Assembly (NCBI RefSeq): GCF_004010195.1
Contig: NC_057736.1
Coordinates: 5,853,376-5,917,375 of the forward strand
Source of the DNA: Chiloscyllium plagiosum
Taxonomy: Eukaryota
Reading direction: 5' to 3'
Length of the DNA: 64,000 bases
How positions within the stretch are numbered: the first letter of the stretch is position 1; each line of letters opens with the position of its first letter. A program made the position numbers and the translations under genes. The notes beneath the pieces are model-generated. The model was not told the origin of the DNA. It did no database searches and was given only the letters and a program-made list of their open reading frames with translations. This document shows positions 3,688-62,042 of the stretch, piece by piece.

Positions 3688-3785
3688 ATTCCTGATGAAG
3701 GGTCTTATCCGAAATGTCGATTCTCCTGTTCCTCAGCTGCTGCCTGACCTGCTGTGCTTTTCCAGCACTACACTCTTGACTCTGA
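3688..3785 (+). mobile_element. PLE terminal-repeat fragment (family A) with hammerhead core
   Basis: ctgatgaagggtcttatccgaaatgtcga followed by the same sequence that ends the GIY-YIG element at 53330-54203. Confidence 0.8.
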
Positions 3786-4071
3786 GGCAGGTCCCTAATC
3801 CAACCCAGCAGGAACAGGTTCGAGTCCAGTTTTGTTGGTACAAATCTGATTCACACCGTACATCCAGCAAACCGAGCCATTTGTTCCCACCTCCCTTCCC
3901 ATGCCCCACTCCCAACCCACCATCACTGCCACCACCCAGGAATTGGAGTTGCTGTGGCAAGGTGCACTTCTGCATTTATTGTCTTGACGGGAGCAACGGA
4001 CCATCTGGTAAAGGTCCAAATACTTTCCAATGCATAGCTGACCTGGAATCTATTTCAGTCTTACTGCCTAC

Positions 4072-4450
4072 TTTTTTTAATTTCAAAAATATACTTTATT
4101 TATAAAATTATTTGGATCTCTTTACAACTGGTCATGCCATTCTTGTGCACATATTACATTTCTTTACATACAGACATCAAAATTTATTTTTCCTATATAC
4201 AAGTCTGTACATTTACTATCCAGCTCTTCTGGTGAGGCGTCAGTGGAGCCCAAATAACTGCGCGGGCCCCCTGTTCTTCTTAGGCGGGCAGATGTTACAT
4301 GGTGGTCTTTCCCCACCGTGCCTTGGCGGCAGCTGCCCCAACACGTAGTCCTGGACCTTGGAGTGTGCCAGTCTGCAACACTCAGTTGGGGTCAACTCCT
4401 TCAGCTGGAAGATCACCAGGTTTCGGACCGCCCAGAGAGCGTCCTTCACC
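4072..4450 (-). mobile_element. L1/Tx1-like LINE 3' end
   Basis: Minus ORF VKDALWAVRNLVIFQLKELTPTECCRLAHSKVQDYVL resembles the Tx1 ORF2 C-terminus; AATAAA and A-rich tail; degenerate TSD cttactgcctac/cttactacttac. Confidence 0.7.
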
Positions 4451-5434
4451 TTACTACTTACTATTAGCATTGGGTTGGAAAGGTTTGCAGGCTGATACTA
4501 ACCTGTTTTGGCTACATAATGATTGCACCTATGTCTGCCAAACAGCTCCTTGAAGTAACAGTGAGTACACCTCAAAAACATTGAATTCCCCCTAATGTAC
4601 CTTGGATATCTTGAGTTTGTGACAGCAGCTATGCATATGCAAATTTCTTTGCTATTACGCTTTTAAATCATTGGATTAGGACATGAGCTCAACACCTGCA
4701 AGATAAGAACATTACCATAGATCCAAGACAACTGGAAGAGAAACTATATAATAAAGGAGACAGATTAGCAACTCAAATGGCTCTTTTGATGCGACACTGA
4801 ATGAATATAATTAGTGTGTACAGAAAAACAGCAGTAGGTCATTTAGAACCTTAAACTTGTTCTATTTGTAATGCAATTCATTATTAGCTCACCAGGAATG
4901 AATATTAGAATGAGACCACCGCTGGTGCTAGGTAAATTTACCTTGATGTGATCTGATAATTGGAACAGTGTTTCAAAGGCCAATTATGGTGGCCTAATTG
5001 GTGCATGGATGGAGGTGAATAAAGATTTGTATCGGTCATGTATTTTTAAATAGGATGCACTGACAAGAGTTTGTATATGAGACCACTTTCATCTGCCTGT
5101 CTCAATTTCACACTAAGATGTCTATAATTGTCAATTCTGTCATTGCAGGAGTTACTTATAACCCTAGCTTTAATTCTGTACAGTTTTAGGATTCTGCTAG
5201 AGCTTATCAGAACTACTCAACTAATCCATCTTTCAATCTCACTTCTAACTCGACACCACCCATCATACATCTCTCGCTGTTCAACCTATCCGCAATAATT
5301 GCAGGTTCAATGCAGGAACCATCATTGGAAATAGACATGGCTTAGAATTCTCTTGGTATATAAACTGGTTTATAAACTGAAAAATCATGAACTTATACTG
5401 GGAGGCCTTAGACAGTACTGATCTCAGATGGATA

Positions 5435-5645
5435 GGTAAAAACAAGGACTGCAGATGCTGGAAACCAGATTCTAGATTAGAGTGATGCTGGAAAAGCACA
5501 GCAGGTCAGGCAGCATCTGAGGAGCAGGAAAATCGACGTTTCGGGCAAAAGCCCTTCCTGATGAAGGGCTTTTGCCCAAAACGTTGATTTTCCTGCTCTT
5601 CAATGCTGCCTGAACTGCTGTGCTTTTCCAGCACCACTCTGATCT
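5435..5645. mobile_element. Fold-back (palindromic) PLE-derived element, family A, with hammerhead core
   Basis: Inverted arms centred near 5558; core ctgatga-agggc tttt gccc-aaaacgtt; direct repeat ctgatctcagatgga at 5418-5432 and 5639-5653. Confidence 0.9.
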
Positions 5646-6055: not shown

Positions 6056-6282
6056 GGAGAAAGTGAGGACTGCAGATGCTGGAGATCAGAGCTGAAAATG
6101 TGTTGCTGGAAAAGCGCAGCAGGTCAAGCAGCATCCAAGGAACAGGAGAATCAATGTTTCGGGCATAAGCCCAAGGTTTCGGGGATTCCTGAAGAAGGGC
6201 TTATGCCCGAAACGTCGATTGTCCTGTTCCTTGGATGCTGCCTGACCTGCTGCGCTTTTCCAGCAACACATTTTCAGCTCTG
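6056..6282. mobile_element. Fold-back PLE-derived element, family A
   Basis: ~85-bp inverted arms; TSD tggtctctatgc at 6044-6055 and 6281-6292. Confidence 0.9.
6186..6219 (+). ncRNA. Minimal type I hammerhead ribozyme motif (intact core)
   Basis: CUGAAGA-A-GGGC UUAU GCCC-GAAACGUC: conserved core, 4-bp stem II, palindromic ACGU stem III and GUC cleavage triplet. Confidence 0.75.
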
Positions 6283-7879
6283 GTCTCTATGCCCCAACTC
6301 CATCCCTGGCTAAAAGATCTGTTTGGGAAGGACAACTACCCTGTAGACATTTAATAGCTAATTGCTAGAGGCAGGATTTCCACCATTCATAAGTGCCACC
6401 TTAGAAAGCTGAGACAATCAGTGCCAGTAGCGCCAGTGGGAGCACTGGTCATTGCTGGTAATGCATTTGGATACCATATAGTTGATTTGCCATAGATCAA
6501 ACCAGTGCAACCCTTTGGAGGCTGGCAGAGTCTAGGTTCACTAGCGTCCTTTAGGGAAGGAGATCTGCTGTCTTTACCTACTCTAGCCTACATGTGACTC
6601 TAGATCTACAACAAGATAGGATTGGCTCTTAACTGCCCTCTGGGTATTTTTAGATGGGCAATAAAAGCTGGCCCAGTCAGCAGTACTCATCCCATGAATG
6701 AATGAAAAAATGAGTGCCATCAGTTCTGATAGCAGAACCTCCTCCAGAACCATTACCACAACTTCCACATGTCCAGTCTTCAGACTCTTGTATTTCCTGG
6801 GTGAGAGACCTCTCTCACTAACCTTGGGCTACATTCTACCCTTGATCTTTATTATTCAAAACAAAAATCTTCCTGCTTTAGCAATGGCATTGCCTCTTAT
6901 ATGAAGAAAATCAAGGTTAATCACAATTGATGCTGTAACTACACCATTTATGGGGAATCAGCAGGAAAATGGATGTGAAAAGTGTTGGATCAGCCATGGA
7001 TCCTATTGAATGGTGGAGCAGGCCCTAGGGGCTGAATGGCCTACTCCTGTTCCTCTTTCTTGTGATCCTAAAAATAAGACACAGCAGTTTGATGAATACA
7101 GGCAAATAAACAAAATGTAATTTATTGACAAGCCAACCTTGTTTAACTGGAATGCAAAAAAAGAATAATGACATTGAGGACAAAATGCAATGACAAATTG
7201 TATGCTGAATATTTGGGAAGGAGAGCATTATTTTAAAAATGAGGTGGAAAACAACTAACATGATCAGGAGATACAATAGCTAATTATTAATATTATTTAT
7301 GATAGGTTAAAATTAGACTTATATTTTTCTGTGAGAATTGCTGCATGAGATCAACTAGTTATTATTTATTGATTTGTTTCACTTAACACAGAAGGGCAAT
7401 GATTGAGGAACAATTATCTTCGTCCCAGCAGTGGCCTCATTACTTATTATAAAGGAACACAGAGATATAACAGTTATAAATGCAGAAAAAAATGTCAATT
7501 TCTTTCAATTTGCACAAGAGTTGTATTTTCATTTGATCTCAAAATATATTCAATCAAGAAAGCCCAGTTAAGTTTCATGTTTCATTTGCACTGAATCCTG
7601 TAAAGTCTACCAATAGGTGCATGAAAGAATAAATGCAAAAATGGTAATTATTTTAAATCTATTCATTCGATATTTTTCCATCCTAGAATTCCTGAGATAA
7701 ATCCATTTAATATTTCAGTGAAACATCATGTATAAAAAGAGGCATTGCTGCAGTTTGAGGATCTGATAAGCCTGAAGCAGAAAATGGTATGTGCAAAAGA
7801 GATGTCACATGTGTGCAATGCATGAGATTCTTTGAAGTTGGAGATGAAGGATGTTGTGAAGCAAAGGGAGCTTTATCAC

Positions 7880-8905: not shown

Positions 8906-8929
8906 CAGAACAGAGTCTTATGTGTTAAT

Positions 8930-9090
8930 AAAGACACAAAGTGCTGGAAATATTCTGCAGGCCTCGGAGCATCTGTGGAGAGAGAAACCCTACTGAAGAA
9001 GAGACATACCAGACTTGAAATGTGAACTGTTTCTCAGTCCATGAATTCTGCCAGAACTGCTGAGTTCCTCCAGCACTTTCTATTTTTAAT
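8930..9090. mobile_element. Older fold-back PLE-derived element, family C
   Basis: aaagtgctgga...gcatctgtggagagagaaac / ctgaagaagag...gacttgaaa...ctgctgagttcctccagcacttt: inverted arms around a decayed hammerhead core. Confidence 0.65.
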
Positions 9091-9128
9091 ATCGAGATCT
9101 AACGATAGCAGTTATTTTGTTTTACTTA

Positions 9129-10621
9129 TAGAACATAGAACAGTGCAGCGCAGTACAGGCCCTTTGGCCCTTGATGTTGTGGCGACCTGTGAAACTAATC
9201 TGAAGCCCATCCCACCTACACTATTCCATTTTCATCCACACGTCAATCCAATGACCATTTAAATGCCCTTAAAGTTGGCGAGTCTATTACGGTTGTCGGC
9301 AGCGTGTTCCACATCCCTACTACTCTCTGAGTAAAGAAACTACCTCTGACATCTGTCCTATGTCTATCACCCCTCAATTTAAAGCTATGCCCTCTCATGC
9401 TAGCCATCATCATCTGAAGAAAAAGGCTTTCACTGTCCACCCTATCTAAACCTCTGATTATCTTATATGTTTCAATTAAGTCACCTCACAACCTTCTTCT
9501 CTCCAACGAAAGCAGCCTCAAATTCCTCAGCCTTTCCTCGTAAGACCTTCCCTCCATACCAGGCAACATCCTATTAAATCTCCTCTGAACCCTTTCCAAA
9601 TCTTCTACATCTTTTCATAATGAGGTGACCAAAACTGTATGCAATACTTTGAGTGCGGCCGCACCAGAGTTTTGTACAGCTGCAGCATGACTTCATGGTT
9701 TTGAAACTCAATCCCTCTACTAATAAAAGCTAACACACTGTAAGCCTTCTGATGAAGGGCTTTTGCCCAAAACGTTGATTCTCCTGCTCCTTGGATGCTG
9801 CCTGACTGCTGTGTTTCTCCAGCACCACACTCTTGACTCTGATCTCCAGCATCTGCAATCCTCACTTTCTCCTTCTTAACAACCCTATCAAACTGGGTGG
9901 CAACTTTCAGGGATCTATGTACAGGGACACCAAGATCCCTCTGCACATCCACAGTACCAAGAATCCTACTATTTGCCCAGTACTCTGCATTCCTGGTACT
10001 CCTTCCAAAGTGAATGACCTCACATTTTTCTGCATTAAACTCCATTTACCATCTCTCAGCCCAGGTCTGCAGCTTAGCTATGTCCCTCTGTAAACTACAA
10101 CATCCTTTGGCACTATCCACGACTCTACCGACCTTAGTGTCGTCCGCAAATTTACTAACCGAACCTTCTATGCCCTCATCCAGGTCATTTATAAAAATGA
10201 CAAATAGCAATGGACCCAAAACAGATCCTTGTGGTATCCCACTAGTAATTAAACTCAAGGATGAACATTTCCCATCAACCACCACCCTCTGTCTTCTTTC
10301 AACTAGCCAATTTCTGATCCAAACCGCTAAATCACCCTTAATCCCATGCCTCCATATTTTGTGCAATAGTCTACCATGGGGAACCTTATCAAACGCCTTA
10401 CTGAAATCTATATACACTACATCAACTGCTTTACTCTCATTCACTTGTTTGGGCACCTTCTCAAAGTATTCAGTAAGGTTTGTGAGGCATGACCTACCCT
10501 TCTCAAAACCGTGTTGACTATCCCCAATCAACTTATTCCTTTCTCAATGAGTATAAATTCTATCTCATATAACCTTTCCAACACTTTACCCATAACCGAA
10601 GTAAGGCTCACTGGTCTATAA
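9129..10621 (-). mobile_element. Young CR1-type LINE, 5'-truncated, with reverse transcriptase domain
   Basis: ORF 10046-10531: QHGF..GRSCLTNL, DFSKAFDKVPH, GIPQGSVLGPLLF, FADDTK. Tail atagaacatagaac at ~9129. Interrupted at 9748-9872. Confidence 0.95.
9748..9872 (+). mobile_element. PLE family A terminal repeat with hammerhead core, nested in the CR1
   Basis: ctgatgaagggcttttgcccaaaacg...cctcactttctcc; the CR1 sequence rejoins across it with a short ccttct duplication. Confidence 0.88.
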
Positions 10622-10649
10622 TTTATTATCCACCTTCAATGTCAAACAT

Positions 10650-17129: not shown

Positions 17130-17567
17130 AACATCTTGAGGAATAACATCTCATCTTCAGACTTGGCACTTTATAGTCTCTGGACTTAACATTAAGTTCA
17201 ACAGACTGCGAACCAACTCCCATCCCTTCCCTTTTGTTTAGCTTTACTTGTTCCATTCTCTGTTACCATACCTTCTCTCCCTTCCCCCCACCCGAGTGGG
17301 TCTGTCTGCTCTTCCGAGTTGGGCAGTTAGACACACCATTGTTCTGCCATTCTCACATTCTCATCACTTAATCCAAAATATCAACATCCTTTGTTCCCCA
17401 GCACTCCAAATGCCACCACCCCCAAACCCCACCCTTCTTCTCGCAACTATGAATACTGCCCCCTCCACACTTCACTTCAGCTCTGATGAACAGTCATGTC
17501 GACTTGAAACGTCTTTCTCCATGGATGCTGTCTGACCCGCTGTGATCTCCAGCATTTGTTGTTTTCC
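17130..17567 (+). mobile_element. PLE 3' end (family C) with hammerhead core
   Basis: Remnant E.HLIFRLGTL (compare 53790 region); ctgatgaacagtcatgtcgacttgaaacgtc at ~17483-17513. Confidence 0.72.
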
Positions 17568-18044
17568 GGATTAGCCTCATTCGATTTCAATTTGGTTTGA
17601 CTCAGCAAGTGCAAAGATTTTTCAGAATCCAATCAACCCTAGCTACTTCAGAAAGCTGATCTTATTTATGTGTTATAACTGCATTTCCCCTACCAAATTC
17701 CGTAGATGCCATGGAATTACGAAAATGAACTAACAGCCTTAAAAGCTGCCTGCGAGAAATAAGTTTGACTTCAGTTTACAAAATTTGCTAAGCACACCAG
17801 GAGATTTTGTTCAACCGATACAAATCTAACATGGTTGAACTCTTATTCAACTTGCTTATCTCAAGGGAAAACTTACAACAGCCAAGTAACAAAAAATTTA
17901 ATTGAAAAGCATTGAGTTTAAAATTAAGTCTTAAGTAGATGTATACAAATGCCTGTAAATTTGCATATATTAACCTCTTTGACAAGAATTCTTCGCTGCA
18001 TCTAGCTAGCACCCTGTGGTGTCTATGGCAGTCCTTTCTTCTCA

Positions 18045-18368
18045 GATTCACAGAATCCCTATTGTGTGGAAGCAGGCCATTTGGCCCATTGAGTCCACAA
18101 CGATCCTCCAACGAGCATCCCACCCATTTCCCATGGCCAATCCAAATAACCTACACAACCCTGGACACTATGGCCATTTCCCATGATTAATACACCAAAC
18201 CTGCACATCTTTGGACTGTGGGAGGAAACCAGTGCACCCGGAGGAAATCCACACAGACACGGGAAGAATGTGCAAACTCCACACAGACAATCACCTGAGG
18301 CTGGAATTGAACCTGGGTTCCTGGTGCTGTGAGGCATCAGTGCTAACCACTGAGCCACAGTGCTGCCC
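18045..18368 (-). mobile_element. HE1-like V-SINE
   Basis: Reverse complement of gcagcactgtggctcagtggttagcactg; A/B boxes, V-domain and tail present. Confidence 0.9.
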
Positions 18369-18629
18369 CACTCTTAATCATTGAAAATCGACAATATGGT
18401 AATTCTTTACATTGTCACTTAATAGGGAAACCGTCTTTGTCTTCTCTTGGAGAACAATAAGGGAGCACAGTATGGTGAGTAATCAATTTCTTTATTGCAT
18501 AGGCATTCTGTCAAGGTCTCTAGAACTACTTTTTATGCACCAAAGTTAAATAAGATAACCACTGCGAGGGAGTGCTGGTTAGGATGAAGTCACCACCAGA
18601 ATAATATTCCCATTAGTCTATTCAAAACA

Positions 18630-18830
18630 GGAGTTAAAATGTGTGGCACTGGAAAATCACAAAAGGTCAGGCAGCATCTGAGGAGCATGAAAGTTGATGA
18701 TTCGAGCATAAGCTCTTCATCAAGAATGTCGACTCTCCTGCTCCTGGGGTGCTACCTGAGCTGCTGTGCTTTTCCAGCGCCACTTTTTTTTGACTCTGAC
18801 TATCCAACATCAGCAGTCCTCACTTTCTCC
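18630..18830. mobile_element. Fold-back PLE-derived element, family A (decayed)
   Basis: Inverted arms; ctattcaaa duplicated on both sides. Confidence 0.8.
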
Positions 18831-19344
18831 TATTCAAACAAGGTATCAACAAACTGCAACAACACTAATTTGTTACTGGGCTGCTTCATATACTGAGATC
18901 CCACAGGTTGCGAAAGATCTTTAGCAGTCTGATAGATGTCATGGGCTCCATCTCCAGATTGACCCAGGTGCAAGCAAAACAGCAAAGGAGAGGCAAGGGG
19001 CCCAAACCAATATCCTCAACAGTCTCACACACACTGCTCATGTTGATGTCAGTATTAAGAGATCCACGTTGTGCCCCATCTTTTGGTAAGCTGGGTGACT
19101 GAAGGTCAGAAAACCTAAAAAAGGAGAAGAGCCAAATATTTAGGAGTAATCCTTGGTTAAAAGAAAAGGGTTGAATCTTCTCACTTCAAATACGTACAAC
19201 TCAGTATCCTCCCACAATTTCAAGAAGAGTTGTGGCTCAAATAATTCTAATCCAGAATTGAACAGGGAGATGGATCCTACAAAAACTTGGCACACCCTAA
19301 ATATGAGTACCACAGTTATGCATTCTAACATAATGTCAATATCA

Positions 19345-19587: not shown

Positions 19588-20160
19588 GGAGAAAGTGAGG
19601 ACTGCAGATGCTGGAGATCAGAGTAAAAAAAGTGTGGTGCTGGAAAAGCACAGCAGGTCAGGTAGCATCCAAGGAGCAGAAGAATCGACGTTTCAGGCAT
19701 AAGCCCTTCTTCTCTCACTGAGATCCTTGTAGAGGGAGGAGGAGAGCTTCTTCAAGGTAGGCATCCTTGCAAGTGGATTCGCAGTAGGTTAAGATCAACT
19801 AGGAGAAAGTGAGGACTGCAGATGTTGGAGACCAGAGTTGAAAAGTGTGGTGCTGGAAAAACACAGCAGGCCAGGCCAGAGTTCTCCTGCTCCTCGGATG
19901 CTGCCTGGCCTGCTGCGCTTTTCCAGCACCACACTTTTCAACTCTGGTCTCCAGCATCTGCAGTCCTCACTTTCTCCTAGTTGATCTTAACCTACTGCGA
20001 ATCCACTTGCAAGGATGCCTACCTTGAAGAAGCACTCCTCCTCCCTCTACAAGGATCTCAGTGAGAGAAGAAGGGCTTATGCCTGAAACGTCGATTCTTC
20101 TGCTCCTTGGATGCTGCCTGGCCTGCTGTGTTTTTCCAGCACCACACTTTTCAACTCTGA
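19588..20160. mobile_element. Large fold-back PLE family A insertion (~570 bp) with tandem terminal repeats
   Basis: 19615-19877 is the reverse complement of ~19900-20160; degenerate TSD ctgattgttaatatg/ctgattatcaatgtg. Confidence 0.9.
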
Positions 20161-20177
20161 TTATCAATGTGCCCCAC

Positions 20178-20410
20178 ATTCCCGCCTCAGGCGACTGACT
20201 GTGTGGATTTGCACGTTCTCCCCGTGTCTGCGTGGGTTTCCTCCCACAGTCCAAAGATGTACAGGTCAGGTGAATTGGCCATGCTAAATTGCCCGTAGTG
20301 TTAGGTAAGGGGTAAATGTAGGGGTATGGGTGGGTTGCGCTTCGGCGGGGCGGTGTGGACTTGTTGGGTCGAAGGGCCTGTTTCCATACTGTAATGTAAT
20401 CTAATCTAAT
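20178..20410 (+). mobile_element. 5'-truncated HE1-like V-SINE
   Basis: V-domain plus (taatc)n tail. Confidence 0.88.
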
Positions 20411-29022: not shown

Positions 29023-29502
29023 GGAGAAAGTGAGGACTGCAGATGCTGGAGATCAGAGCTGAAAATGTGTTGCTGGAAAAGCGCAGCAGGTCAGACAGCA
29101 CCCAAGGAGCAGGAGAATCGACGTTTCTGGCATAAGCCCTTCTTCAGGAATGAGGAAAGTGTGCCAAGCAGGCTAATATAAAAGGTAGGGAGGAGGGACT
29201 TGGGGGAGGGGTGTTGGAAATGCGATAGGTCGAAGGAGGTTAAGGTGAGGGTGATACAGTGAGGGTGAAAGGCCGGAGTGGGGGTGGGGGCGGAGAGGTC
29301 AGGAAGATGACTGCAGGTTAGGAAGGTGGTGCTGACCTCCCCGCCCCCACCCCCACTCCGGTGGTTGGTCCGGGTGTCCCAGAGGTGTTCTCTGAAACGT
29401 TCCGCAAGTAGGCGGCCTGTCTCCCCAATATAGAGGAGGCCACATCGGGTGCAGCGGATGCAGTAAATGATGTGTGCGGAGGTGCAGGTGAATTTGTGGC
29501 GG
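29023..29502 (-). mobile_element. Penelope-like element, 5'-truncated and internally deleted, with GIY-YIG endonuclease remnant
   Basis: HIIYCIRCTRCGLLYIGETGRLLAERFREHL; family A terminal repeat with hammerhead core at 29119-29147; TSD accaagta at 29015-29022 and 29503-29510. Confidence 0.92.
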
Positions 29503-39123: not shown

Positions 39124-39559
39124 TAAAATACAGACAAAAAAAATTGCCTTAACTGTAACTCTATCAAAATGCCTAACAAAATAATAGATATATAAACTAC
39201 TAATTAACTGTTCTAATATAGTAACAGCCTATAAACACACCCTTGACAAAGGCAGATTGTCTCACATGCAATTCTAACAGCAGGAAGAGATTCCCAGCTT
39301 TTAGCTAGAGCAGAGAGAGGAATCAGAGCTTCCACAGGCAGCTGCAAGACCCCAGCAAATGCAGAAAGCTAAAGCTAAATATTTTTGTTTTGTGGAAGCT
39401 TGCCCCCACCCATTCAGGCTGCTTCTGTTGTTACAACTTTTAAAAAAGGCCTTATAACATGTTTACCTCTTTGGCTTTGGAGCAAAAATGCTCATTGTCT
39501 CTTTTTTCAACAAAAGAACCAGGACAAAATACACATCTTAAAGTCATAGTATCATCATG

Positions 39560-40960
39560 TATGTAATTGCACAATATAGATGACATGTCAGAACATTGGG
39601 TAGAATATAAAAGAAGTAACAAATGACAAAAATATTAATGGAGGAATTGACGACCAAAGAAAGCTAGCTAGATATATAAAACAGGTAAGAGTTTCTGTAG
39701 ATATTTAAAAATTAAAAAGAGATGAAGTGAACCTTGGCCTAAGAAAGTGAACCTGGAAGTTAATAAGAGAAAACAAGTACCTGGTAGATAAATTGAGTAG
39801 GTATTTCTATTGTTCTTTGCTCTAGAAGATACCATGATCATCTTAGAAATAGCTGTAATTCTGGAAATAGAACAAAGAGAGGTACTATGTTGTGAAGAGG
39901 ATACAAGAAGGCTATAATGGGATGAAGATAGATTGTGTATGATAGGAAAAAAATCAGACAAATAGGGTATAATATGGGGAAAAATGAGAATGCTTTTTAT
40001 GGTGGAAAGAATCAACTAGATACATATTATTAAAATTACAAGAGATTGCAAAGCTTTTGGTGCTGGGTGTGCTAACGTGTGAATTGTAAAAGCAAAGTAT
40101 GCAAATACAGCAAGTAATCAGGAAGGCAAATAGAATGTTATTATGATGTGGAGGTGCCAGTGTTGGACTGGGGTGGACAAAGTTAGAAATCACACAGCAC
40201 CATGTTATAGTCCAACAGGTTTATTTCACAGGTATGCTCCACAACCACCTGATGAAGGAGCAGCGCTCCGAAAGCAAGTGCTCCCAAATAAACCTATTGG
40301 ACTATAACCTAGAGTTGTGTGGTTTTTAAGAAGGAGAAAGTGAGTTCTGCAGATGCTGGAGATCAGAGTTTTTAAGAATGTTATTATTTATTGTGAGGAG
40401 TTGAATACAAAAGCACAGAGGTTATATTTCCATCATACACTGTATTAGGGAGATTTCATCTGGCGTACTGTGTATAGTGTCAGTTACCTTATTTAAGGAA
40501 GGATGGAAATACATTGGAAGAGTTCAGGGACTTTTAACCACAGCAGTACTTGGAATGGCCTATTTGTCTTACGAGGGAAAGAAGGACAGTCTGTTCATTT
40601 GTGTTCACTGGGATTTAGAGAAGTAAGAGGTGAATTGTTTGAAACACACAAAATCCTGAGCAGCTTTGACAGAGTGGATATGAAAAGGATGTTTCTTCTT
40701 GCAGGAGAAGCTAAAATCTGGCGTCACTGTTTATAAGGAAGGAGTTGGCCATTTCAGAGCGAGATGAAGAGAAAACTTTTTTTCACAGAGGGTGATGAGT
40801 CTTTTGAAACCCTTTCTCAAAACAATGAAAGCAGAGTCCTTGAATATTTTAAAGGCAGAGAGATCCTAAATAAAGTCATAGGAGCTGAAAGTCTTTCTGG
40901 AGGAGATGGGAATGTGAACAGATCAGCCATGACTTAATTGACTGGGAGAACAGGCCAGGG
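39560..40960 (+). mobile_element. Old CR1-type LINE (continuation of 36040-36620)
   Basis: Decayed ORF2 and tail (gatcagccatgacttaattg). Confidence 0.72.
40143..40368. mobile_element. Fold-back element family B with hammerhead core, plus a nested 36-bp family A end
   Basis: cac-ctgatga-aggagc agc gctcc-gaaagc at 40246-40275; agaatgttatt duplicated around the insertion; family A stub 40333-40368 flanked by gtttttaagaa. Confidence 0.85.
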
Positions 40961-41040: not shown

Positions 41041-41577
41041 AGAGTCACAGAGTCATAGAGATATACAGCACGGAAACAGACCCTTCGGTCCAACCCGTCC
41101 ATGCCGACCAGATATCCCAACCCAATCTCGTCCCACCTGCCTGCACCCAGCCCATATCCCTCTAAACCCTTCCTATTCATATACCCATCCAGATGCCTTT
41201 TAAATGTTGCAATTGTACCAGCCTCCACCACTTCCTCTGGCAGCTTATTCCATACATGCACTACCCTCTGCAGGAAAAAATTGCCCCCCCTCACGCAGGT
41301 CTCTTATATCTTTCCCTTCTCACTCTACACGTATGCCCTCTTGTTCTGGACTCTCCCACCCCAGATAGATTTTGTTTATTATCCTATCCATGCCCCTTAT
41401 GATTTTATTAACCTCTATAAGGTCACCTCTCAGCCCCCAATGCTCCAGGGAAAATAGCCCCAGCTTATTCAGCCCCTCCCTATACCCTGGCAACATCCTT
41501 GTAAATCTTTTCTGAATCCTTTCAAGTTTCACAATATCCTCCCGATAGGAAGATCAGAATTGCGCGCAATATTCCAA
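41041..41577 (-). mobile_element. CR1/HER1-type LINE 3' fragment
   Basis: agagtcacagagtcatagag tail; KLERIQKRFTRMLPG. Confidence 0.9.
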
Positions 41578-46109: not shown

Positions 46110-46430
46110 GATTAGATTAGATTAGATTACTTTACAGTGTGGAAACAGGCCCTTCGGCCCAACAAGTCCACACCGACCCGCCGAAGCGTAACCCACCCAT
46201 ACCCCTACATTTACCCCTTACCCAACTCTACGGGCAATTTAGCATGGCCAATTCACCTGACCTGCACATCTTTGGACTGTGGGAGGAAACCGGAGGACCC
46301 GGAGGAAACCCACGCAGACACGGGGAGAACGTGCAAACTCCACACAGTCAATCGCCTGAGGCGGGAATTGAACCCGGATCTCTGGCGCTGCGAGGCAGCA
46401 GTGCTAACCACTGTGCCACCGTGCCGCCCA
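46110..46430 (-). mobile_element. Full-length young HE1-like V-SINE
   Basis: gggcggcacggtggcacagtggttagc head, B box ggttcaattccc, V-domain, (taatc)n tail; CpGs retained. Confidence 0.95.
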
Positions 46431-49725: not shown

Positions 49726-50300
49726 AGGAGATGTATTTTGATGTAGGGGGTAGGGTCATCTATAATTGTGTGATAGCCAATTTCTAGATGAGCAAACTGA
49801 AATCTTTTTCAACACATGAAGGCTCAGACAGATTATGCTCACAAAGCCAATTATTATCTGTGAATCCTCTGACCTGCAGGACCTTTTGATATGCATTTTC
49901 AGGCTTGACACTATCTCTACTCAACGGCTGCCAAAAGTTAGCTTCTTGACACTGTCTTCAATTTGTTTTTTATATGCCTTTGACTTTCTAACTGAGTGTT
50001 ACCTTTAACCACACTTGGAACCTGATGTAGATTATAATGAGTGTAGAGTGAGAAGGTGAATCTCTTCAGAATTGCAACTGAGACTGATGAACAATGAACT
50101 ATGCATTTTTGATGTTGCTTTGTATTACATTGAAATCAGTAGTGTCTTGATTGGCACTTACAGGGGTGCAGATGCTAATAGACAGAGAGACCCATTGGCA
50201 TTCAATTAGCCAAAACAGGTTTGCTTTCTGTTGCTGCCATGGCAATACTTCAGAGTTAGATTTTTACATTAAATTGAAATAACAATACCTGAATATTTTA

Positions 50301-50504
50301 AGTTAAAAATCACACAACACCAGGTTATAGTCCAACAGGTTTAATTGGAAGCACACTAGCTTTCGGATGAAGGAGCATCACCTGATGAAGGAGCGTCGCT
50401 CCAAAAGCTAGTGTGCTTCCAATTAAACCTGTTGGACGATAACTTAGTGTTGTGTGATTTTTAACTTTGTACACCCCAGTCCAACACCGGCATCTCCAAA
50501 TCAT
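50301..50504. mobile_element. Fold-back element family B with hammerhead core
   Basis: ~65-bp near-perfect inverted arms; ctgatga-aggagc gtc gctcc-aaaagcta at 50382-50410; TSD tgaatattttaagtt at 50290-50304 and 50504-50518. Confidence 0.9.
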
Positions 50505-51189
50505 GAATATTTTAAGTTGACCTTGATTGTTATAAAAGCAGGGTTCACCTGATGCCTCTCTTAATAATGATAATCTGCCATTCTTACCCAGTCTGGCTGT
50601 CACATGACTCCAGTCCCATAACATGTTTGGTTCTTTAACTACTCACTGACATGGCCTAGCATGTATTAAAGGGCAGTTTGAGGTGGGCAGCAAATACTGA
50701 TCTTCCCAAAGGTGTTCTCATCCCACAAATAGTAGGAGAAACCCACAATTCACCAGGAAAGAACCACCCTCAACATGCGGGATTGTTGCTGATGATTTCA
50801 GTTTTGCTTTTCCTGTCTCGGGCAGCCTTCTCAGACCCAAAATCAGTTTGAACACTGAATTTGATTGAGGAAGAGGAGAAGGACAACGTACACCAAAAAG
50901 CATGGCTGTTTCTTTTTAATCGATGAATCCACAACATCTCCCTCTGAGAAGCATCCAGTTGTCTTCAGGGCACTTACTCTGGTGCTGGTGAGCTCTGGTA
51001 GCTTGGTCTACACACTCTTTAATTTGTTCATGGGAAATGGGAATTGTTGACTAGGCCAGATTTTGCTTTATTGCCTAGTGGCCATTTGAGAGCCTGGAAT
51101 CACATGTGGACCAGACCAGGTAAGGATGGCAGATTTCCTTGCCTAAAGTACATTAATAAACCTGATAGGTTTTCATGACTGTTTTTGAG

Positions 51190-51383
51190 ATCAGAAATCA
51201 TATGGCACCAGGTTATAGTCCAACAGGTTCATTTGAAATCACAAGCTTTCAGAATACTTCTCCTTCATCAGGAGCAGTGCTCCAAAAGCTTGTGATTTCA
51301 AATTAACCTGTTGGACTTTACCTGGTGTCATATGACGTTTGACCTTGTCCACCCCAGTCCAACACCAATACCTTCACAACATG
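51190..51383. mobile_element. Fold-back element family B (variant)
   Basis: Inverted arms around ccttcatcagg; catgactgtt on both flanks. Confidence 0.8.
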
Positions 51384-52499
51384 ACTGTTGTTATGACTAC
51401 AATTACTTTGACATTAGGTTGGCTTTTATTTCAGATTTTTTTTAATTCACCTGGTGATGGGTCTGTGGAGAGATTCGACCGCATGTTCACAGAACTCCAG
51501 TCTGAGGCTCTGGATTATTAACACAGTGATATTCCTGCCATTTGTTAGCTTTGGAATAGAAAGTGATTTTTGATTTCCAACTTCTAAATTTATCTTACAC
51601 CCATTTATTATTTAATCTCCTTTCATCACGGCAAACAATTTGCCTGGATTGATTTTGTAATTGCACTTTTTCAAAACTTCAATTACATCGCCCCAAGTCT
51701 CCACTTCAGCAAGTGCTGTGGGTATTTGATTTTGTTCAGATCCCTCTCTAATCGTGAAGGGTTATTACATTGTCGACAAATCCCTGATTTCCAGATGAAG
51801 GATTTCTGCTTATTCCACTCCAATTGAGTCAGAACACAATCTTTGGTCAGACCTGACCTGAAGGCAGTGTTCAAACTACTTGATTGAATTTTTGAGTTCA
51901 ATTTCTCAATTACCTTTTATGACTTTTTTTAAAAAAAAAAGAAAAATCAGCACTAAATTACCACGTTGTCAAGTTCAAATATTTTGCTTTTTAATTCTAT
52001 TCACTTTCCGACTGAAATGATAGCAGTTGACAGCCTGGGTTTATATACCAAACAAGGGGCAATTTGCATTGCTGAATTGAATGAACATCAAACAAAATAG
52101 ATACATCAATCCATTAAGAGGGCAGGACAGAAAGCCACCTAGACTTTTTCCTTCCCTGATTGTGATTAAAAGTGCCATCAATAAGTGGGGCCAAGAGAAT
52201 AGTGAAGTTTTAAGACTCTTTAGTAGCCTCTTGAGTGCAATATTAGCTTAGTCCCGATAGATTTCCAGGCATTTCAAATCCTGTAGTTGCTGGGAATGCA
52301 AGAATACTGTTTTGATAAAATAACAGTGATAAATTGGCTTGCAGTTGTCGCCATCCCTCGGTCAATAGACCAATCCAGAGATGGATTTGTGTTTTCCACT
52401 TCTTTTTCTCCCTTCAGCAGGAAGGAAGAAAGCAAATATTCCTAAATCTCCTGTGTATGTTGCTCAAGGTGAGACCAAGAATAAAACCAAAAAATGACA

Positions 52500-52627
52500 T
52501 GGTTAAAAATCACACAACACCAGGTTATAGTCCAACAGATTTATTTGGAAGCACTAACTTTCAGAGCACTGCTCTTTCCTCAGGCGCTTTAATTTTGTCC
52601 ACCCCAGTCCAACACCGGCACCTCCAG
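52500..52627. mobile_element. Family B partial copy
   Basis: aaatcacacaacaccaggttatagtccaac...ccccagtccaacaccggcacctcc. Confidence 0.75.
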
Positions 52628-53329
52628 TAGTCTTTCCTGTTTCTTTTCCCAGCACATACTAGTTTTCAGCACGAAGGCAACTGTGAAAAGTAACCCTCTA
52701 CCTGTGAATAGAAACTTTATTTTGTATGTGAAGTGACTGAAGTAGCAGATTGTTTAGTTGCATTAATTTATACTTTTGAAGCTTTCATATAGACCAAAAC
52801 CAATGTAGCTTTCCACTGTGCGTTTGGAACTTTCTGGTTGGTGGACGGCCGGCATGCTGACAAACTGTTTGTGTATTTCAGTAAATTGCAAATGCTGTTT
52901 TTATTGAAATGTGAAATTCATACTGAAATAACAGGCTTTCTTAGTGAAATATAAACCAAACAGTTCTGAACTCTGCTGAGGTGAAATTAACAAAACTAAG
53001 GTGCTGTTCCTGACGGTGGATTGGAATTGACTGTCACTCCTACTCAGGATAGGAACCATCACGTGCCCAATTTCGATGTAAATCTTGGGGACACAGGATC
53101 AGATCTTGCAAACAATGGGCACTACCTTATAGGCCATAACCTATTTCCATTTGGACCCATCCATTCCCTCCGTGACCCAAAACATGTCAATTGGTGTCTG
53201 TCCCATTGCTGTTCAAGTCCTGAACCACCATTCTCCTTCCAACTCATCCCAACTCATCATTGCCACTACTGGTTACCTAGCTTCTCCTGCTTTCCTCCCT
53301 TGTGACATCGAGTTAGACAAACAAAACCT

Positions 53330-54203
53330 TCGTCATTTTTGTCATCTCCAAACAGACCCCACCACCAAGGATATATTTCCCTCCCCTCCCTTATCAGCAT
53401 TCTGGAAAGATCACTCCCTCCGCGACTCCCTTGTCAGGTCCACACCCCCTCCAATCCCAGCACCTTCCCCTGCAACCGCAAGAAATGCAAAACTTGCGCC
53501 CAGACCTCCCCCCCTCACTTCCCTCCAAGGCCCCAAGGGATCCTTCCATCTCACCTGCAACTCCACACACATCATTTACTGCATCCGCTGCAGCCGATGT
53601 GGCCTCCCCTACTTTGGGGAGACAGGCCGCCTACTTGCGAAACATTTCAGAGAACACCTCTGGGACACCCGCACCAACCAACCCAACCACTCCGTGGCTG
53701 AACACTCTAACTCCCCCTCCCACTCCGCCAAGGACATGCAGGTCCTTGGCTTCCTCCATCGCCAGACCATGGCAACATGACGCCTGGAGGAAGAGCACCT
53801 CATCTTCCGCCTAGGAACCCTCCAACCACAAGGGATGAATGCAGATTTCTCCAGCTTCCTCATTTCCCCTCCCCCCACCTTATCTCAGTCCCAACCCTCG
53901 GACTCAGCACCGCCTTCTTGACCTGCAATCTTCTTCCCGACCTCTCCACCCCCACCCCCTCTCCGGCCTATCACCCTCACCTTAACCTCCTTCCACCTAT
54001 CGCATTCCCAATGCCCCTCCCCCAAGTCCCTCCTCCCTACCTTTTATCTTAACCTGCTTGGCACACCCTCCTCATTCCTGAAGAAAGGCTAATGCCCAAA
54101 ACGTCAATTCTCCTGGTCCTTGGATGCTGCCTGACCTGCTGCGCTTTTCCAGTAACACATTTTTCAGCTCTGATCTCCAGCATCTGCAGTCCTCACTTTC
54201 TCC
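53330..54203 (+). mobile_element. Penelope-like element 3' half: GIY-YIG endonuclease remnant plus family A terminal repeat
   Basis: FPCNRKKCKTC Zn-linker, HIIYCIRCSRCGLPYFGETGR...FREHL, EEHLIFRLGTLQPQGMN; hammerhead core at 54078-54105; TSD caaacaaaacct at 53318-53329 and 54203-54214. Confidence 0.93.
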
Positions 54204-56000: not shown

Positions 56001-57391
56001 ATGAATGCTGCCTCTTTCCTGGCAACACGTATTTCATAACTCTGCCTGAAGCTACAAGTATTCTGTCACTTAAATTGAGATTATCTGTCTGTCTGTCTAT
56101 CTGTGTCTACTGGGCAAACTGTAGAATTGAAGCATTTGTTGTGAAGAACTAGCAGACAATTTCTGTGCTTCTCTTGGATCTATCCTAATGCCTGCAGATA
56201 GCACCCGCCAGAAATCAAAGCAGTTACTTCTGGTCGATTTCTTGTTTTATTCGGTGTCCTGTATAACTACACTTGAATTACCATAGTAACTTCACAGTCC
56301 CTTTTTACTCTGGTTTGTCTGATACCAGTCAGAGCATTGGGTGGCAGCACCATGGTAGGCAGTGTAGAATTTCAAGATGATGTATTGAAATAGTTGAGAC
56401 TGTTATGCTGAGATTTGATGCCTTGTTTTGTCTTTGAGACACCATAGAAAATGCCAGGCTTATACACTGAGCAGCTGCTGAGAAACAAGCGCAAACCAGT
56501 GTTCCTCTACGCCAGCTGGATAAATTTCACTGAAACCCTACTGTTAATTGAATCCAAGCTTTACAGTGAAGAACAAAACTAGATTCTTTTTTTCCCTCCT
56601 CTAGTAGATTTATTCATCAGATGCAGCTTTGCAAATCTTTGCCTGCTAACTACCCACCCAGTGTCCCAGCTGACTCCCTCTCTATTCTTTTGCATTTGTC
56701 AAATCAACTAATTAACTACTTAATTCGCTGGGTTGGTTTTTCCTGCTTTTTCTGCTCTGTGTGTATCTGGGCAATTTTCCACTTTGTCAGGGCAGATGGC
56801 AGGTTTGTAGCTGCACTGGAACAGCTTGGCTAGGGGCGTGGCAAGTTGTGGAGCACAAGTCTTCAGTACTATTGTCAGAGCCCAGGACCTATTGCAATCT
56901 TCAATATCCTCAGTCGTTTTTTGACATCATGTGGAATGGAGTGAATTGGCTGAACACTGGTACCTGTAACACAGGGGACCACTGGAAGAGGCAGAGGTGG
57001 ATGGTCCACTTGCTACTTCTGGCTGAAGATTGTTGAGAATGCTTCTGCCTTATTTGTTACATTCACGTACTGGACTCTCCCAACATTGAGGATGGAGCTA
57101 TTTGTGGAGCCTCTTCCCTCTGTTAGTTGTTTCCAATTATCCATCACTATTCATGATGGAATGTGATGGAACTGCAGATTGGGCCTGTTAGTTGTGTAAT
57201 TGCTGCCTATCACTTGCTGCCTATCACTTGCTGCTTATGCTGTTTTATATCAATGTATGTAGTCCTGTAGGGGTTCACCAAGTTACTAACTCCATTTTGC
57301 AGCAGGTATGCTCTCCTACACTCTTCTTCCTTACATTTGGACATTGAAAAATAATGCTTTGCTCACACAACCCTTAGTTAGACTGTGTTCA

Positions 57392-57705
57392 TTAGATTAG
57401 ATTCCCTACAGTATGGAAACAGGCCCTTCGGCCCAACAAGTCCACACCGACCCTCTGAAGAGTAACTCACCCAGACCCATTCCCTCTGACTAATGCACCT
57501 AACACTATAGGCAATTTACCATGGCCAATTCACCTGGCCTGCACGTCTTTGGTGAGTGGGAGGAAACCGGAGCGCCTGGAGGAAACCCCGTAGACACAAG
57601 GAGAACATGCAAACTGCACACAAACTGTTGCCAGAGGCAGGCATCTAACCCGGGTCCCTGGCGGTGTGAGGCAGCAGTACTAACCACTGAGCCACCGTGC
57701 CACCC
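57392..57705 (-). mobile_element. HE1-like V-SINE
   Basis: Same structure as 46110-46430. Confidence 0.9.
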
Positions 57706-58075
57706 ATGTTATGTGATTCACTAATATGATGATTGAGCTTTAATAATCACCATTGTAACATTTGCCAGAGACTCCATGTGCTTCACATGACACTTGTGTA
57801 ATCCACTATATCAATTACTTTCATCTCATTGTGGTTTTGACTCTTGTCCTTTCCAACATTTTTGGGTGGAGAGTCATCATATTTCAGTTCAGTTAGACCC
57901 ATAACACCATAAGATGTAGGAGTGGAAGTAAGGCACATCGAGTCCACTCCGCCATTTAATCATAGCTGATGGGCATTTCAATTCTAGTTACACAGCAGAG
58001 ATTTGAACATTTTTAATGACAACAAAGCTAAGGAAACCCCTTCACCCCCCGCCCTTTTCCACCTTCCACAGGGAC

Positions 58076-58190: not shown

Positions 58191-58387
58191 ATAGGGATAA
58201 TCAGATACACTTTGGATGGTTGCTTTGGAGAGCAGAAAAGCACATTAAAAAAAACTCCAAACTATGAAATGTAAATGTGTGATATGTGAAACTTCCCATA
58301 TAGGGAAAATAGAAAAGGAAATGAGGGCAGTTTCATGTTTGACTGGATAGATGAGTTTCCTCATTGTTTGATTAAAATTTTGATATT

Positions 58388-58686
58388 AGTTTAGATTACT
58401 TACAGTGTGGAAACAGGCCCTTTGGCCCAACAAGTCCACACCGACCCTCTGAAGAGCGGCCCACCCAGACCCATTCCCCTACATTTACTCCTTCACCTAA
58501 TACTACGGGCAATTTAGCATGGCCAATTCACCTAACCTGCACATCTTTGGACTGTGGGAGGAAACCAGAGCACCCAGAGGAAACCCACGCAGACACGGGG
58601 AGAATGTGCAAACTCCACACACAGTTGTCCGAGGTGGGAATTGAACCCAGGTCTCTGGCACTGTGAGGCAGCAGTGCTAACCACTG
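58388..58686 (-). mobile_element. HE1-like V-SINE
   Basis: Same structure as 46110-46430. Confidence 0.9.
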
Positions 58687-59217
58687 TTCAGAAGTTTCAT
58701 TAATTCCACTTTTGTTAACCAGTATGGTCAAACTAATTGCGGTCCTTTTCAAGGAATGGGTTTTAAAAAGGAAAGAGAATTTCCATTCATGAAGGTCCCA
58801 GGTATTAAAATCAGATTGCATTCAAAAGGATATTTGTCAATATTTTATCATTATGGTGACAAATATGTATTGAAAAACTTAAGGTTCATTAAAATGCAGC
58901 CAAAGTGCTCAATGGATTCTGCAGCTAACTGTCTAGTGAAGAGGTATCTGTCTTCAGGAGATAGCACTTACCTCCACTTTAGAAGGTATAGTGAAGGTTT
59001 CGAGATACACAACCAAAAAAAAATTTCACAGGTATCACAAAGAGACCGCCACTGATCAACTAGAATTTGAACTGTCAATGATTGATTTTAAATATTATAT
59101 CTAACTGTATTCACACTGAGCTGTGCACTCCTCTCTTAACCAATAAACTGGTTGCTGCAGGTGGCCTACGGAAGGATTAGGGATGCTGTCTTCTAGTTTC
59201 CTTCAGGTTTGAGTGTG

Positions 59218-59720
59218 AGTTTTGAGAAGATTTGTAGCTCAAGTTGAGGTTATGGATGTAGGGTTGCTCACTGAGCTGGAAGGTTCATTTCCAGACGCTT
59301 CGTCACCCTACTAGGTCACATCTTCAGTGGGCCTCAGGCGAAGTACTGCTGATAACTCCTGCTTACTATTTATATGTTTGGGTTTCTTTCAGTTGGTGAT
59401 GTCATTTCTTGTGGTGAAGTCACTTGTTGTTCTTTTTCTCGGGGGTGGTAGATAGGGTCTGACTCGATGTGTTTGTTGATAGAGTTCTGGTTGGAATGCC
59501 ATGCTTCTAGGAATTCTCATGCATGTCTTTGTTTGGCTTGACCTAGGATTAATGTGTTGTCCCAGTCGAAGTGGTGTCCTTTCTCATCCGTATGTAATGA
59601 TACTAGTGAGAGAGGATCATGTCTTTCTGTGGCTAGTTGGTGTTCGTGTATCCTAGTGGCTAGTTTTCTGTCTGTTTGTCCAATGTAGTGTTTTTTACAA
59701 TTCTCGCATGGTATTTTGAG
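59218..59720 (-). mobile_element. Penelope-like element family D, 3' end (GIY-YIG remnant plus hammerhead)
   Basis: KIPCENCKKHYIGQTDRKLATRIHEH; CCA-CUGAAGA...GAAGCGUC-UGG at 59291-59330. Confidence 0.85.
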
Positions 59721-61567
59721 TGTGACCTTGGATGAAACTGTCAGACGGGTTTAGGCAGTGCATTCTATTGCTCATTTATGCATCTTTATCCACCCATCAC
59801 ATCTTTCTGCTGGAAAGAATGCATTCAATTAACATCAGCAACAACTCACATTCTGTACAAAGGATGCTGGGACAGAAAGGGAATATGGTACCATCACTGC
59901 TTAAACTTAGGCTGTCTGAGCATGGCTTGACAAAAAGGGTGAAGATGTGTGTGTGTGTGTGTATACACACGTACGTACAAGCTGGTCATATTTGATATTT
60001 CCTGGTAGCAGTGTTCTACTAACTAAATTGACAGCTGAGCGGCAATGTAATTTCAGATTATTTCAATGGCAATGCTGATGAAGCAATCATGCATGTTAAA
60101 AATTATAGAGTAAGGGCTAAGGGAAATTATTTATCCTGTCCAGTTTCAATCTAGTAAAGATAGGTTCACTGCATTCTATTAGTTTCAAACTAAGGACAAG
60201 AAAGATTGCATTTGTAATGCTTTCAAAAATAGTTTGAACATGTGGACCATGAGAAATAATATCTACCTTATTAGAAATGTTGTGTATTTCTTATTTACCT
60301 TGATAGACACAAGTGGGAAGTGAACTGAGGTATAGAATCTGCATATGAACAATAAGTAGCAATAAAAAAGGATTAGGATCAGTCTTAGTTGGCCAGAGTG
60401 CCTGTTCTTGTATTGTATTTCCTTTTCTATTTGTTGAATGATGGAGCCCAATAAAAATGGAAAAGTATTACAGAGACACTGCTTTGTATCGACAGACTGA
60501 TGGTTAGCATTAGTTTCTTCTTGATAATGCTTTTTTATTGTTGAATAGCTTCATTTGCATGCCGTTTTCACTTTTTATTTTGCTTGTGGTGCTTTGGTTG
60601 TAGTGCTAAATAATTTTTTCCATAATTTCTTCCTGTGTTGGCCAAATAAATGTCAAGTTATTGGCTGCAAGTTTATCCAGCCAAAGAGCTTCATTTAAGA
60701 ACCAGCGCTGATTCTGGTTTAATAAGTTGAATGAATTTTTGTGTTGGAGTTTCTCTGACATTGTCCTTTAATGCAGGAAACTTTATATAAAATTTAAATT
60801 GTTGTAGGCCATTTGTTGGGAATCCAATCCTTAGTACCATCAGATCCTGTGATCGTGGTTCTCCTTTTGTAAGCTGTTTGCTTTTGTTTCGAACAACCTG
60901 TCAAACTGAAGTAGCCTCTGCTCCCTATAATTTTAATGCCTGCTTCTGCCAGTTTCCTTTACACTTTTTCACAAGAACAGAGAAGTCCGTCGGTTTTTTT
61001 GTACCGTGGAGTCATATTTCAGAGAAGGTGAATGCTAGGCAGCCAGAACTTGTTTCACTCGTGGTTCTGAACATTTCATCTGAGGTATGTTCCACAGATT
61101 TTATTTGTCTGGATTTAAACCCAAACCTACAAACAGTTACTGAATAATATCTGAACATTCTGCGCAAACTATTTCCTTTCTGATGTGGTGCCAAAACCTT
61201 TTTAAGCAATTGGATTCAGTGTCCATTGTTCTGAATTGGGGACCCAGAAAATTAAGACTTTTCATGTGCACTGACTATTGTTGTCCTTTTTAGTTGTGGA
61301 AGTCATGGGTTTGGAAGGTGCTGTCAAGTTAACATTATGTTTGCATGTTTGAGGTATTTGTTCTGTTTGTAATAGGGATGACTTGGAAATTGTCCACCAC
61401 ACATGAATCAAGCAGGTAATACATTGGCGCAATAAACAGATATTTTGATTGCATGTTTTAATATTCTGTATATTGTACTGATCTACTGAGTAACTGGATG
61501 AGAGATTGGGAATATTGATCAGAGATCGTTGACGTGAGGCCCATTTTTGCACAAATAAAGAGTTCAA

Positions 61568-62042
61568 AGTTTGTGCGAAGATTTGTAGCTCGGGTGCTCG
61601 TTGTTGTGGTTCTGTTCGCCGAGCTGGAAGTTTTTGTTGCAAACGTTTCGTCCCCTGGCTAGGCGACATCATCAGTGCTTGGGAGCCTCCTGCAAAGCGC
61701 TTCTTTGATGTTTCCTCCGGTGTTTATAGTGGTCTGTCCCTGCCGCTTCCGGTTGTCAGTTTCAGCTGTCCGCTGTAGTGGTTGGTATATTGGGTCCAGG
61801 TCGATGTGTTTGTTGATGGAGTTTGTGGATGAATGCCATGCCTGTAGGAATTCCCTGGCTGTTCTCTGTCTGGCTTGCCCTATGATAGTAGTGTTGTCCC
61901 AGTCGAATTCATGTTGCTTGTTGTCTGCGTGTGTGGCTACTAAGGATAGCTGGTCGTGTCGTTTCGTGGCTAGTTGATGTTCATGTGTGCGGATTGTTAG
62001 CTGTCTTCCTGTTTGTCCTATATAGTGTTTAGTGCAGTCCTT
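61568..62042 (-). mobile_element. Penelope-like element family D, 3' end (young copy)
   Basis: KDCTKHYIGQTGRQLTIRTHEHQ...AREFLQAWHS...INK, a GIY-YIG C-terminal region. Confidence 0.9.
61639..61678 (-). ncRNA. Minimal type I hammerhead ribozyme motif (intact core)
   Basis: GCA-CUGAUGA-U-GUCGCC UAGCCA GGGGAC-GAAACGUU-UGC: stem I GCA/UGC, stem II, palindromic ACGU stem III. Confidence 0.8.

Follow-up and report, generated by a model that had tools for sequence, protein, structure and literature searches.

Short repeats carrying hammerhead ribozyme motifs are scattered through a 64,000-nucleotide stretch of the Chiloscyllium plagiosum genome (assembly GCF_004010195.1, contig NC_057736.1, positions 5,853,376 to 5,917,375; hereafter the window), raising the question of how so many copies arose and whether their ribozymes act, either on host genes or on the elements that brought them. 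The original prediction, made from the sequence alone, had assigned the motifs to minimal type I hammerheads of Penelope-like elements (PLEs). This assignment is correct: the motifs share the features of the minimal hammerhead ribozyme and are linked to reverse transcriptase (RT) and GIY-YIG endonuclease (EN) frames, and are the known minimal type I hammerhead in pseudo-long terminal repeat (pLTR) copies of endonuclease-bearing (EN+) PLEs. Both the motif and its association with Penelope elements were already known. The ends of the copies are a more useful result than the motif count, and give a testable clue to PLE hammerhead function. The reading we favour, with a probability of roughly 70%, is that the short copies (stubs) were reverse-transcribed from the front of the element RNA and are now mostly decaying, with starts that reflect the capped RNA start and, occasionally, the ribozyme cut site.

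The carrier repeats are ~90-130 bp long, with two alternative 3' ends ~35 nt apart that define the PLE tail, in each of the families termed A, B and C. Positions within them are counted with C3 as 0; on this scale, the new 5' end produced by the predicted family A cut is the G at +28. Units were anchored downstream of the ribozyme, and were thus counted with or without a core. Among 226 A-type units, 57 start at -10 to -1, with unique flank or an inverted arm upstream, versus four at -49 to -11 (four further units at -10 to -1, with element-like sequence upstream, were set aside); for family B, 21 of 56 units start near the core (-10 to -1) versus four at -49 to -11. In long copies the base at -5 is C or T in A, and that at -9 is C in B. 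A purine directly before A(-4), i.e. at -5, is present in 24,847 family A copies genome-wide, with 66 G and 34 A in the first 100 (hand count), and the upstream element sequence is absent at all 30 of the loci inspected. For B, a purine at -9 gives 3,214 genome matches, with 85 G and 15 A in the first 100; upstream element sequence is again absent in 30/30 inspected loci (28 G, 2 A). The expected share of G is 0.37-0.41 (41% in the B comparison). In the small subset of B copies that have flank only, the ratio is 6 G to 1 A (p 0.02).

The starts also lie at a fixed distance from promoter-like sequence: in family B a TATA box begins 30-32 nt upstream of A(-8), and in family A a conserved A/T-rich hexamer lies 31-32 nt upstream of A(-4) (both counted by hand). 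The starts of most A and B stubs, 4-8 nt before the core, ~31 nt past a TATA-like box and often marked by an extra G, are as expected for copying of a capped RNA to its start; the untemplated G at the 5' ends of full-length L1 and SVA insertions has been attributed to cap copying (PMC3287187). The RNA data come from one fragmented poly(A) single-cell run, possibly of the identical species, with 1,860 reads; in these, depth falls ~tenfold across -4, and loose ends are present there. Reads on one family A pLTR (L008:1398-1541) favour one orientation by ~1.6:1, sense by the convention of the tool, which could reflect library bias. An apparent cluster of ends at -77 was an artefact of a single reference, and vanished when 11 references were used.

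A second, minor class of family A ends lies at the predicted cut site. The searches that detected it required a mismatch to the element at +23 and +24 and placed no constraint on +25 to +31, and the first 100 of 360 (A2) or 1,621 (A1) matches were tallied by hand. From +25 to +31 the A2 ends number 5, 1, 4, 39, 5, 4 and 7, i.e. 39 of the 65 are at +28 with neighbours averaging 4.3; the 35 rows set aside comprise 10 ends at +32 or later, 10 internal deletions and 15 intact copies with an extra T. The corresponding A1 counts are 11, 7, 5, 23, 8, 24 and 3, such that 23 of 81 ends are at +28 with neighbours averaging 9.7 (19 rows set aside), and a single microhomology join accounts for half of the +30 class. 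Compared with a flat expectation, the peak has p values of 2e-17 (A2) and 7e-4 (A1), where rows are taken as independent though a few represent both strands of a single palindrome. In A2, the composition immediately before +28 differs little from background (G 13, A 9, T 17, C 4; p 0.07), so this class is without a clear extra-G mark. At one locus (L342) two joined units both start at +28. As a rough scale, correct to an order of magnitude given that pattern lengths differ, there are 400-1,000 copies per pattern at +28 versus ~50,000 at -4. A pile-up at +33 to +46 was rejected, as it consists largely of other families with their own core.

Most probably, transcription of a tandem element would begin from a promoter in its upstream pLTR and give a capped RNA that starts 4 nt (A) or 8 nt (B) ahead of the core, placing the ribozyme right at the transcript's 5' terminus. 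Priming by the element protein would then be internal, at the end of the pLTR or at the tail, on one side of a break or on both; copying would usually run to the cap, yielding ~90-130-bp stubs, and priming from both break ends followed by joining of the cDNAs would yield head-to-head pairs. Uncut RNA would be the main template, with a small share, judging from family A, being cut beforehand. Such an occasional prior cut, occurring as a dimer or with help from protein, would remove a capped leader of ~32 nt that includes the whole core, and the cut RNA would be copied too. Internal priming, both-strand extension, protein-assisted cleavage and the use of uncut RNA as main template have been reported in vitro (PMC11167929). 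Since the predicted cut would remove both the cap and the whole core, the A and B ribozymes would act on the 5' end of their own mRNA. A more tentative extension, which we consider possible though short of probable, is that the stubs form a fossil map of Penelope RNA 5' ends, in which the Neptune-type ribozyme is transcribed first and cuts in the germ line at the predicted site. It would thereby be a self-decapping switch between capped, translatable RNA and uncapped RNA, rather than a means of release from a longer transcript. Copies numbering in the hundreds of thousands permit end-mapping at single-base resolution, by which capped uncut sense RNA, cut or circular RNA and antisense RNA can be separated as templates.

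Several results weigh against copying from a capped, occasionally cut, RNA. With regard to the start just before the core, the excess of G in A copies with flank only is not significant (11 G to 8 A, p 0.11), and of the Gs that sit beside inverted arms about half could be arm-templated. Family C is without a pile-up near the core (0/39 within 30 nt upstream), and the two full tandems found (L301 and L308) start not at -4, but at about -830 and -19. The single-cell run, from a fragmented poly(A) library, gives no pile-up of molecule starts or ends at -4, at the cut site or elsewhere. With regard to the latter site, the peak comes from hand tallies in family A only; a simpler two-pattern A1 count has no excess (574 at +28 vs 678 at +30), though it is confounded by one arm-microhomology class; and among the collected loci, which are biased to core-bearing copies, a +28 start is found in 6/437 A units and cut-site starts in 0/171 B and 0/48 C units. 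Finally, a single short motif opens both A end sites, and it is similar to the ATT reported as the preferred nicking site of the anole (Anolis carolinensis) enzyme.

The same motif figures in an alternative that we regard as unlikely, in which the fixed ends arise at the DNA level, as the element endonuclease nicks its own repeat at an ATT-like motif, or by stalling of the RT at the ribozyme fold, with end-joining microhomology favouring G. The ATT-containing motif at both A end-points, the reported nicking by the anole enzyme at ATT in its own pLTR (PMC11167929) and the 1-2 nt of microhomology at many inverted-arm junctions are all in keeping with it. By contrast, the B end-point is without an ATT motif, yet is equally sharp and G-rich, and both start points are at core-promoter distance from an A/T box. 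Further, where a stub has unique flank and is bounded on each side by a duplication, insertion into an older copy does not apply, and the base composition before +28 is, as noted, near background.

Somewhat less probable again is that short non-autonomous masters, retrozyme- or SINE-like (short interspersed nuclear element) and beginning just before the hammerhead, spread by themselves. Fixed 5' ends, very high copy number and target-site duplications would be expected of these, and tandem retrozymes are reported in one chondrichthyan genome (bioRxiv 10.64898/2026.07.22.740005). The stubs, however, fall in the same subfamilies as copies bearing open reading frames (ORFs); some continue beyond the tail into body sequence of the element (1,288 post-tail matches in the genome, and position 19948 in the window); and the window contains no tandem array of units, with same-strand pairs being rare. 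The post-tail sequence frequently adjoins a second pLTR unit on its upstream side, as though the RT had switched templates. Each of these alternatives, and a third concerning the host considered below, fits fewer results than does reverse transcription from the front of the element RNA.

The families themselves can be placed from their architecture. In the window a GIY-YIG match at 29091-29546 (E 1.8e-05, above cut-off) lies in a frame that precedes the copy at 29147. A hammerhead on the same strand follows at 0.9-1.6 kb downstream in 26 of the 30 best family A RT loci, and L301 and L308, from among 20 longer stretches, are pLTR-ORF-pLTR tandems with core spacings of 3,480 and 3,383 nt, the former with an inverted pLTR in front. 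The traits of EN+ PLEs are thus present, i.e. partial tandem pLTRs and an inverted copy in these loci, and a 30-40-bp tail at the 3' ends in A, B and C. The family A profile match to RVT_1 is below cut-off; family C has an RT above and a GIY-YIG below cut-off; and family B has a GIY-YIG-like frame by motif alone, with no Pfam match. The D-type copies were linked to no ORF. A CX2-5CXXC linker between RT and EN, a feature assigned to Neptune-type elements (PMC8557442), is present in A and B and absent from C, so that, as judged by sequence, families A and B are of Neptune type and C of Poseidon type. The A and D pLTRs are alike downstream (82-85% over 33-39 nt). Given this common repeat, and the Cys linker common to A and B, the proposal of about four unrelated families is not supported as it stands. 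Long family A copies are under-represented, as gaps in the collected loci often hit the C-rich stretch upstream of the hammerhead.

The motifs are less intact than had been implied. A family copy is present at all 12 of the coordinates originally listed (with the D core at 8993 rather than 8992), but the core is intact at half of them: CUGANGA and GAAA, with some stem II pairing, are found at 3692, 6189, 8993, 17483, 40249 and 61675. G12 is lost, by G to A at a CpG, at 5558, 9749, 50382 and 54078; the 10.1-11.1 pair is broken at 29147; and A15.1 is changed at 59327. Under a strict descriptor (core, stem II of at least 3 bp, palindromic stem III, U16.1 and non-G at 17) two of the 12 pass, 6189(+) and 61675(-), as does an unlisted copy at 51271(-); a further unlisted family B copy is at 52583(-). 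Most window copies that fail carry CpG-type mutations. The window has four cores, compared with a mean of 0.025 and a maximum of 1 in 200 shuffles, and 60 arbitrary 10-kb genome stretches have 45, compared with 0-2 in 20 shuffles.

The majority sequences of A, B and C all have the CUGANGA and GAAA boxes, G10.1-C11.1 and one extra base after A9, though single window copies are often mutated. This extra base, between A9 and 10.1, is in all copies and went unmentioned in the original prediction; a pattern lacking it misses motifs. An Rfam covariance search of the window returned no hammerhead family among 40 matches with E up to 10. The stems had been described correctly for A and B, and for C at 61675, and are imperfect at 59327, 8993 and 17483. 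The palindromic stem III is ACGU in A and C and AGCU in B, loop-less and followed by C, U or A. Covariation of stems I and II across families is likewise evident by eye, in that the differing pairs of A, B, C and a C variant keep pairing, although stem I spans only 2-4 bp and, in most A copies, includes a U-U pair. A subfamily related to family C (L096, L190) has both stems altered yet still pairing.

Abundance was estimated in two ways, which agree that the genome-wide number is very large, as anticipated. Two core patterns, both of which fix the boxes and not stem pairing, gave 171,304 and 36,954 matches in the 3.56-Gb genome, with 1,392 and 1,442 for reversed controls, i.e. ~205,000 core-intact copies or one per 17 kb. 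An independent estimate, extrapolated from 68 strict motifs in 120 arbitrary stretches totalling 1.164 Mb, is ~208,000. Single patterns are themselves frequent: a family A pattern of 31 nt, two of them left free, has 45,146 matches, and a family C pattern 12,137. The suggested density of one motif per 5 kb is right for all pLTR copies when decayed ones are included (295 units in 1.23 Mb, ~240 per Mb), by which measure the window is typical of the genome, but not for intact cores. Published per-genome maxima are ~4,000 in coelacanth and ~9,000 in Xenopus (PMC4209133, the available text of which names no shark). The present ~205,000 is far higher, but the comparison is not like for like, since the descriptor used there differs and includes stem I. 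Our literature searches found no account of shark hammerhead counts or of stub ends; the supplements of PMC4209133 and bioRxiv 10.64898/2026.07.22.740005 may hold chondrichthyan counts.

A huge motif count need not equal a ribozyme burden on host genes, and the implied active load is not supported by the state of the copies, most of which in the window are mutated at catalytic positions. In 105 A copies, CpG positions, including G12 and those of stem III, are 72-91% conserved, compared with 95-99% for core positions that are not CpG, except N7; this faster decay at catalytic CpGs is as expected for neutral decay. Just 2/68 of the sampled strict motifs have an intact same-strand partner within 1 kb, so there is probably no active load, and 13/68 have an opposite-strand partner. 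A motif with an inverted partner is buried within a long hairpin, e.g. the pair at 6056-6287 folds as one (-183 kcal/mol, z -21), and the three-way junction was absent from five of five folded monomers. The ~200,000 copies are thus probably mostly lone and inactive, and dispersed monomers within host transcripts would cut rarely. That there is a functional, host-relevant load cleaving intronic RNA is accordingly very unlikely, notwithstanding the ~205,000 intact cores and the presence of the repeats in RNA reads in both orientations, given the CpG-rate decay of catalytic positions, contiguous stem I pairing of ≤3 bp in 62/68 strict motifs, the rarity of dimer partners, and in vitro cleavage rates reported as very low even for dimers (PMC4209133). 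The strands of the copies are balanced genome-wide, which is uninformative on introns.

Comparison with known systems shows much that is shared. The minimal hammerheads of metazoan PLE pLTRs described in PMC4209133 likewise have an extra base between 9 and 10.1, G10.1-C11.1, a palindromic 15.2-16.2 and a short helix I, with several consensus families per genome and copies that are mostly single and dispersed, some in close opposite-strand pairs. That work proposes cut, circularised RNA as the template, whereas most stubs here retain the core. The Poseidon element PAc of A. carolinensis (PMC11167929) has two 3' ends that define the tail, as here, and an ORF whose ATG opens stem II, which is also the case in family C; its both-strand extension fits the head-to-head pairs, and uncut RNA is its main template. 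By contrast with PAc, families A and B are of Neptune type with the ATG downstream of the tail (as seen for A). In the available text of that study, no RNA-seq reads ended at the cut site and insertion 5' ends were not mapped; in vivo cutting was thus undetected for the one element studied biochemically, and PMC8557442 calls the role of PLE hammerheads unclear.

As reported in PMC3846280, PMC8557442 and PMC2377424, EN+ PLE insertions resemble those here in having a pLTR, an adjacent inverted 5'-truncated copy, an optional 30-40-bp tail, target-site duplications, a TATA/Inr-like pLTR promoter and, in Neptune, the Cys linker. The available text of these sources does not describe 5' ends fixed at the front of the ribozyme, an extra G or cut-site ends. 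For head-to-head pairs an antisense template has been suggested (PMC3846280), with which a sense-strand G of cap type would be at odds. The non-LTR retrozymes of bioRxiv 10.64898/2026.07.22.740005 have type I hammerheads of PLE origin and occur in one chondrichthyan; they are defined as tandem repeats, whereas the copies here are solo or inverted, with no head-to-tail hammerhead array in the window and, as above, few same-strand partners within 1 kb.

The window copies are collected in the table. Flanking duplications of 11-17 nt are clear for five of the 16 stubs tried, with ends being approximate.

Table. PLE-derived hammerhead copies in the window (positions are those of the window)
Feature	Position	Strand	Details
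Family A solo stub	3687..3783	+	starts 5 nt before core, C3 = 3692; 15.2 mutated; 11-nt flanking duplication, one mismatch
Family A head-to-head pair	5438..5640	.	core 5558(+), G12 lost; 15-nt target-site duplication
Family A head-to-head pair	6056..6287	.	intact core 6189(+); arm start -4, preceded by non-reference G; ~16-nt duplication; one long hairpin
D-type copy with inverted arm	8925..9085 (approximate ends)	.	core 8993(+); G at 17, stem II weak; not cleavable as it stands
Family A solo stub with tail	9749..9873	+	start = core; G12 lost
D-type copy	17478..17580 (approximate ends)	+	core 17483; 10.1 is C instead of G
Decayed family A inverted pair, previously unlisted	18587..18832 (approximate ends)	.	
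Nested family A palindrome	19588..20161	.	pLTR, tail and first ~90 nt of element body; cores truncated
Family A 3' end	29023..29491	-	GIY-YIG fragment, pLTR, tail; core 29147, 10.1-11.1 pair broken
Family B inverted pair	40139..40330	.	core 40249(+), U16.1 changed
Family B inverted pair	50300..50506	.	core 50382(+), G12 lost; ~17-nt duplication
Family B inverted pair, previously unlisted	51195..51384	.	core 51271(-) passes strict descriptor; own stem I 5' strand lost
Family B copy with inverted piece, previously unlisted	52502..52626	-	core 52583(-); stem III mutated
Family A 3' ~1.1 kb	53133..54203	+	Cys linker, endonuclease remnant, pLTR, tail; core 54078, G12 and 10.1 lost
Diverged family C copy	59218..59329	-	core 59327, A15.1 changed
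Family C (Poseidon-type) 3' end	61560..62123	-	endonuclease remnant, TATA-like box, intact core 61675, stem II starts at ATG, tail

The palindrome at 19588-20161 has 249-nt arms and is nested in family A sequence; the ~90 nt of post-tail body that it includes contain a likely ORF start. Within the family A copy at 29023-29491, positions 29273-29361 form an 89-nt, G/C-rich, near-perfect hairpin, a local inversion that attracts spurious Rfam miRNA matches.

With regard to the two host genes in whose introns several copies had been placed, no Pfam match at cut-off was found among the 150 longest of 453 window frames in unique sequence. Candidate exons with splice signals are at 29836-30069(-), which is acidic, 25149-25214(-), 19029-19114(-) and 42650-42717(+), and a CpG-richer stretch near 33,000-34,000 may be a promoter. 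Other repeats in the window include fragments of a further RT family, of the LINE (long interspersed nuclear element) type, at 9605-10543(-), 27665-28126(+), 38096-39228(-), 504-795 and 41049-41484, which are presumably CR1-like and several of which are mutually inverted; the third is interrupted by a 182-nt assembly gap (38433-38614). An abundant repeat of ~300 nt, found at 18044-18369, 46116-46430, 57391-57706, 58385-58703 and 20235-20410, presumably resembles an elasmobranch SINE or a LINE 3' end.

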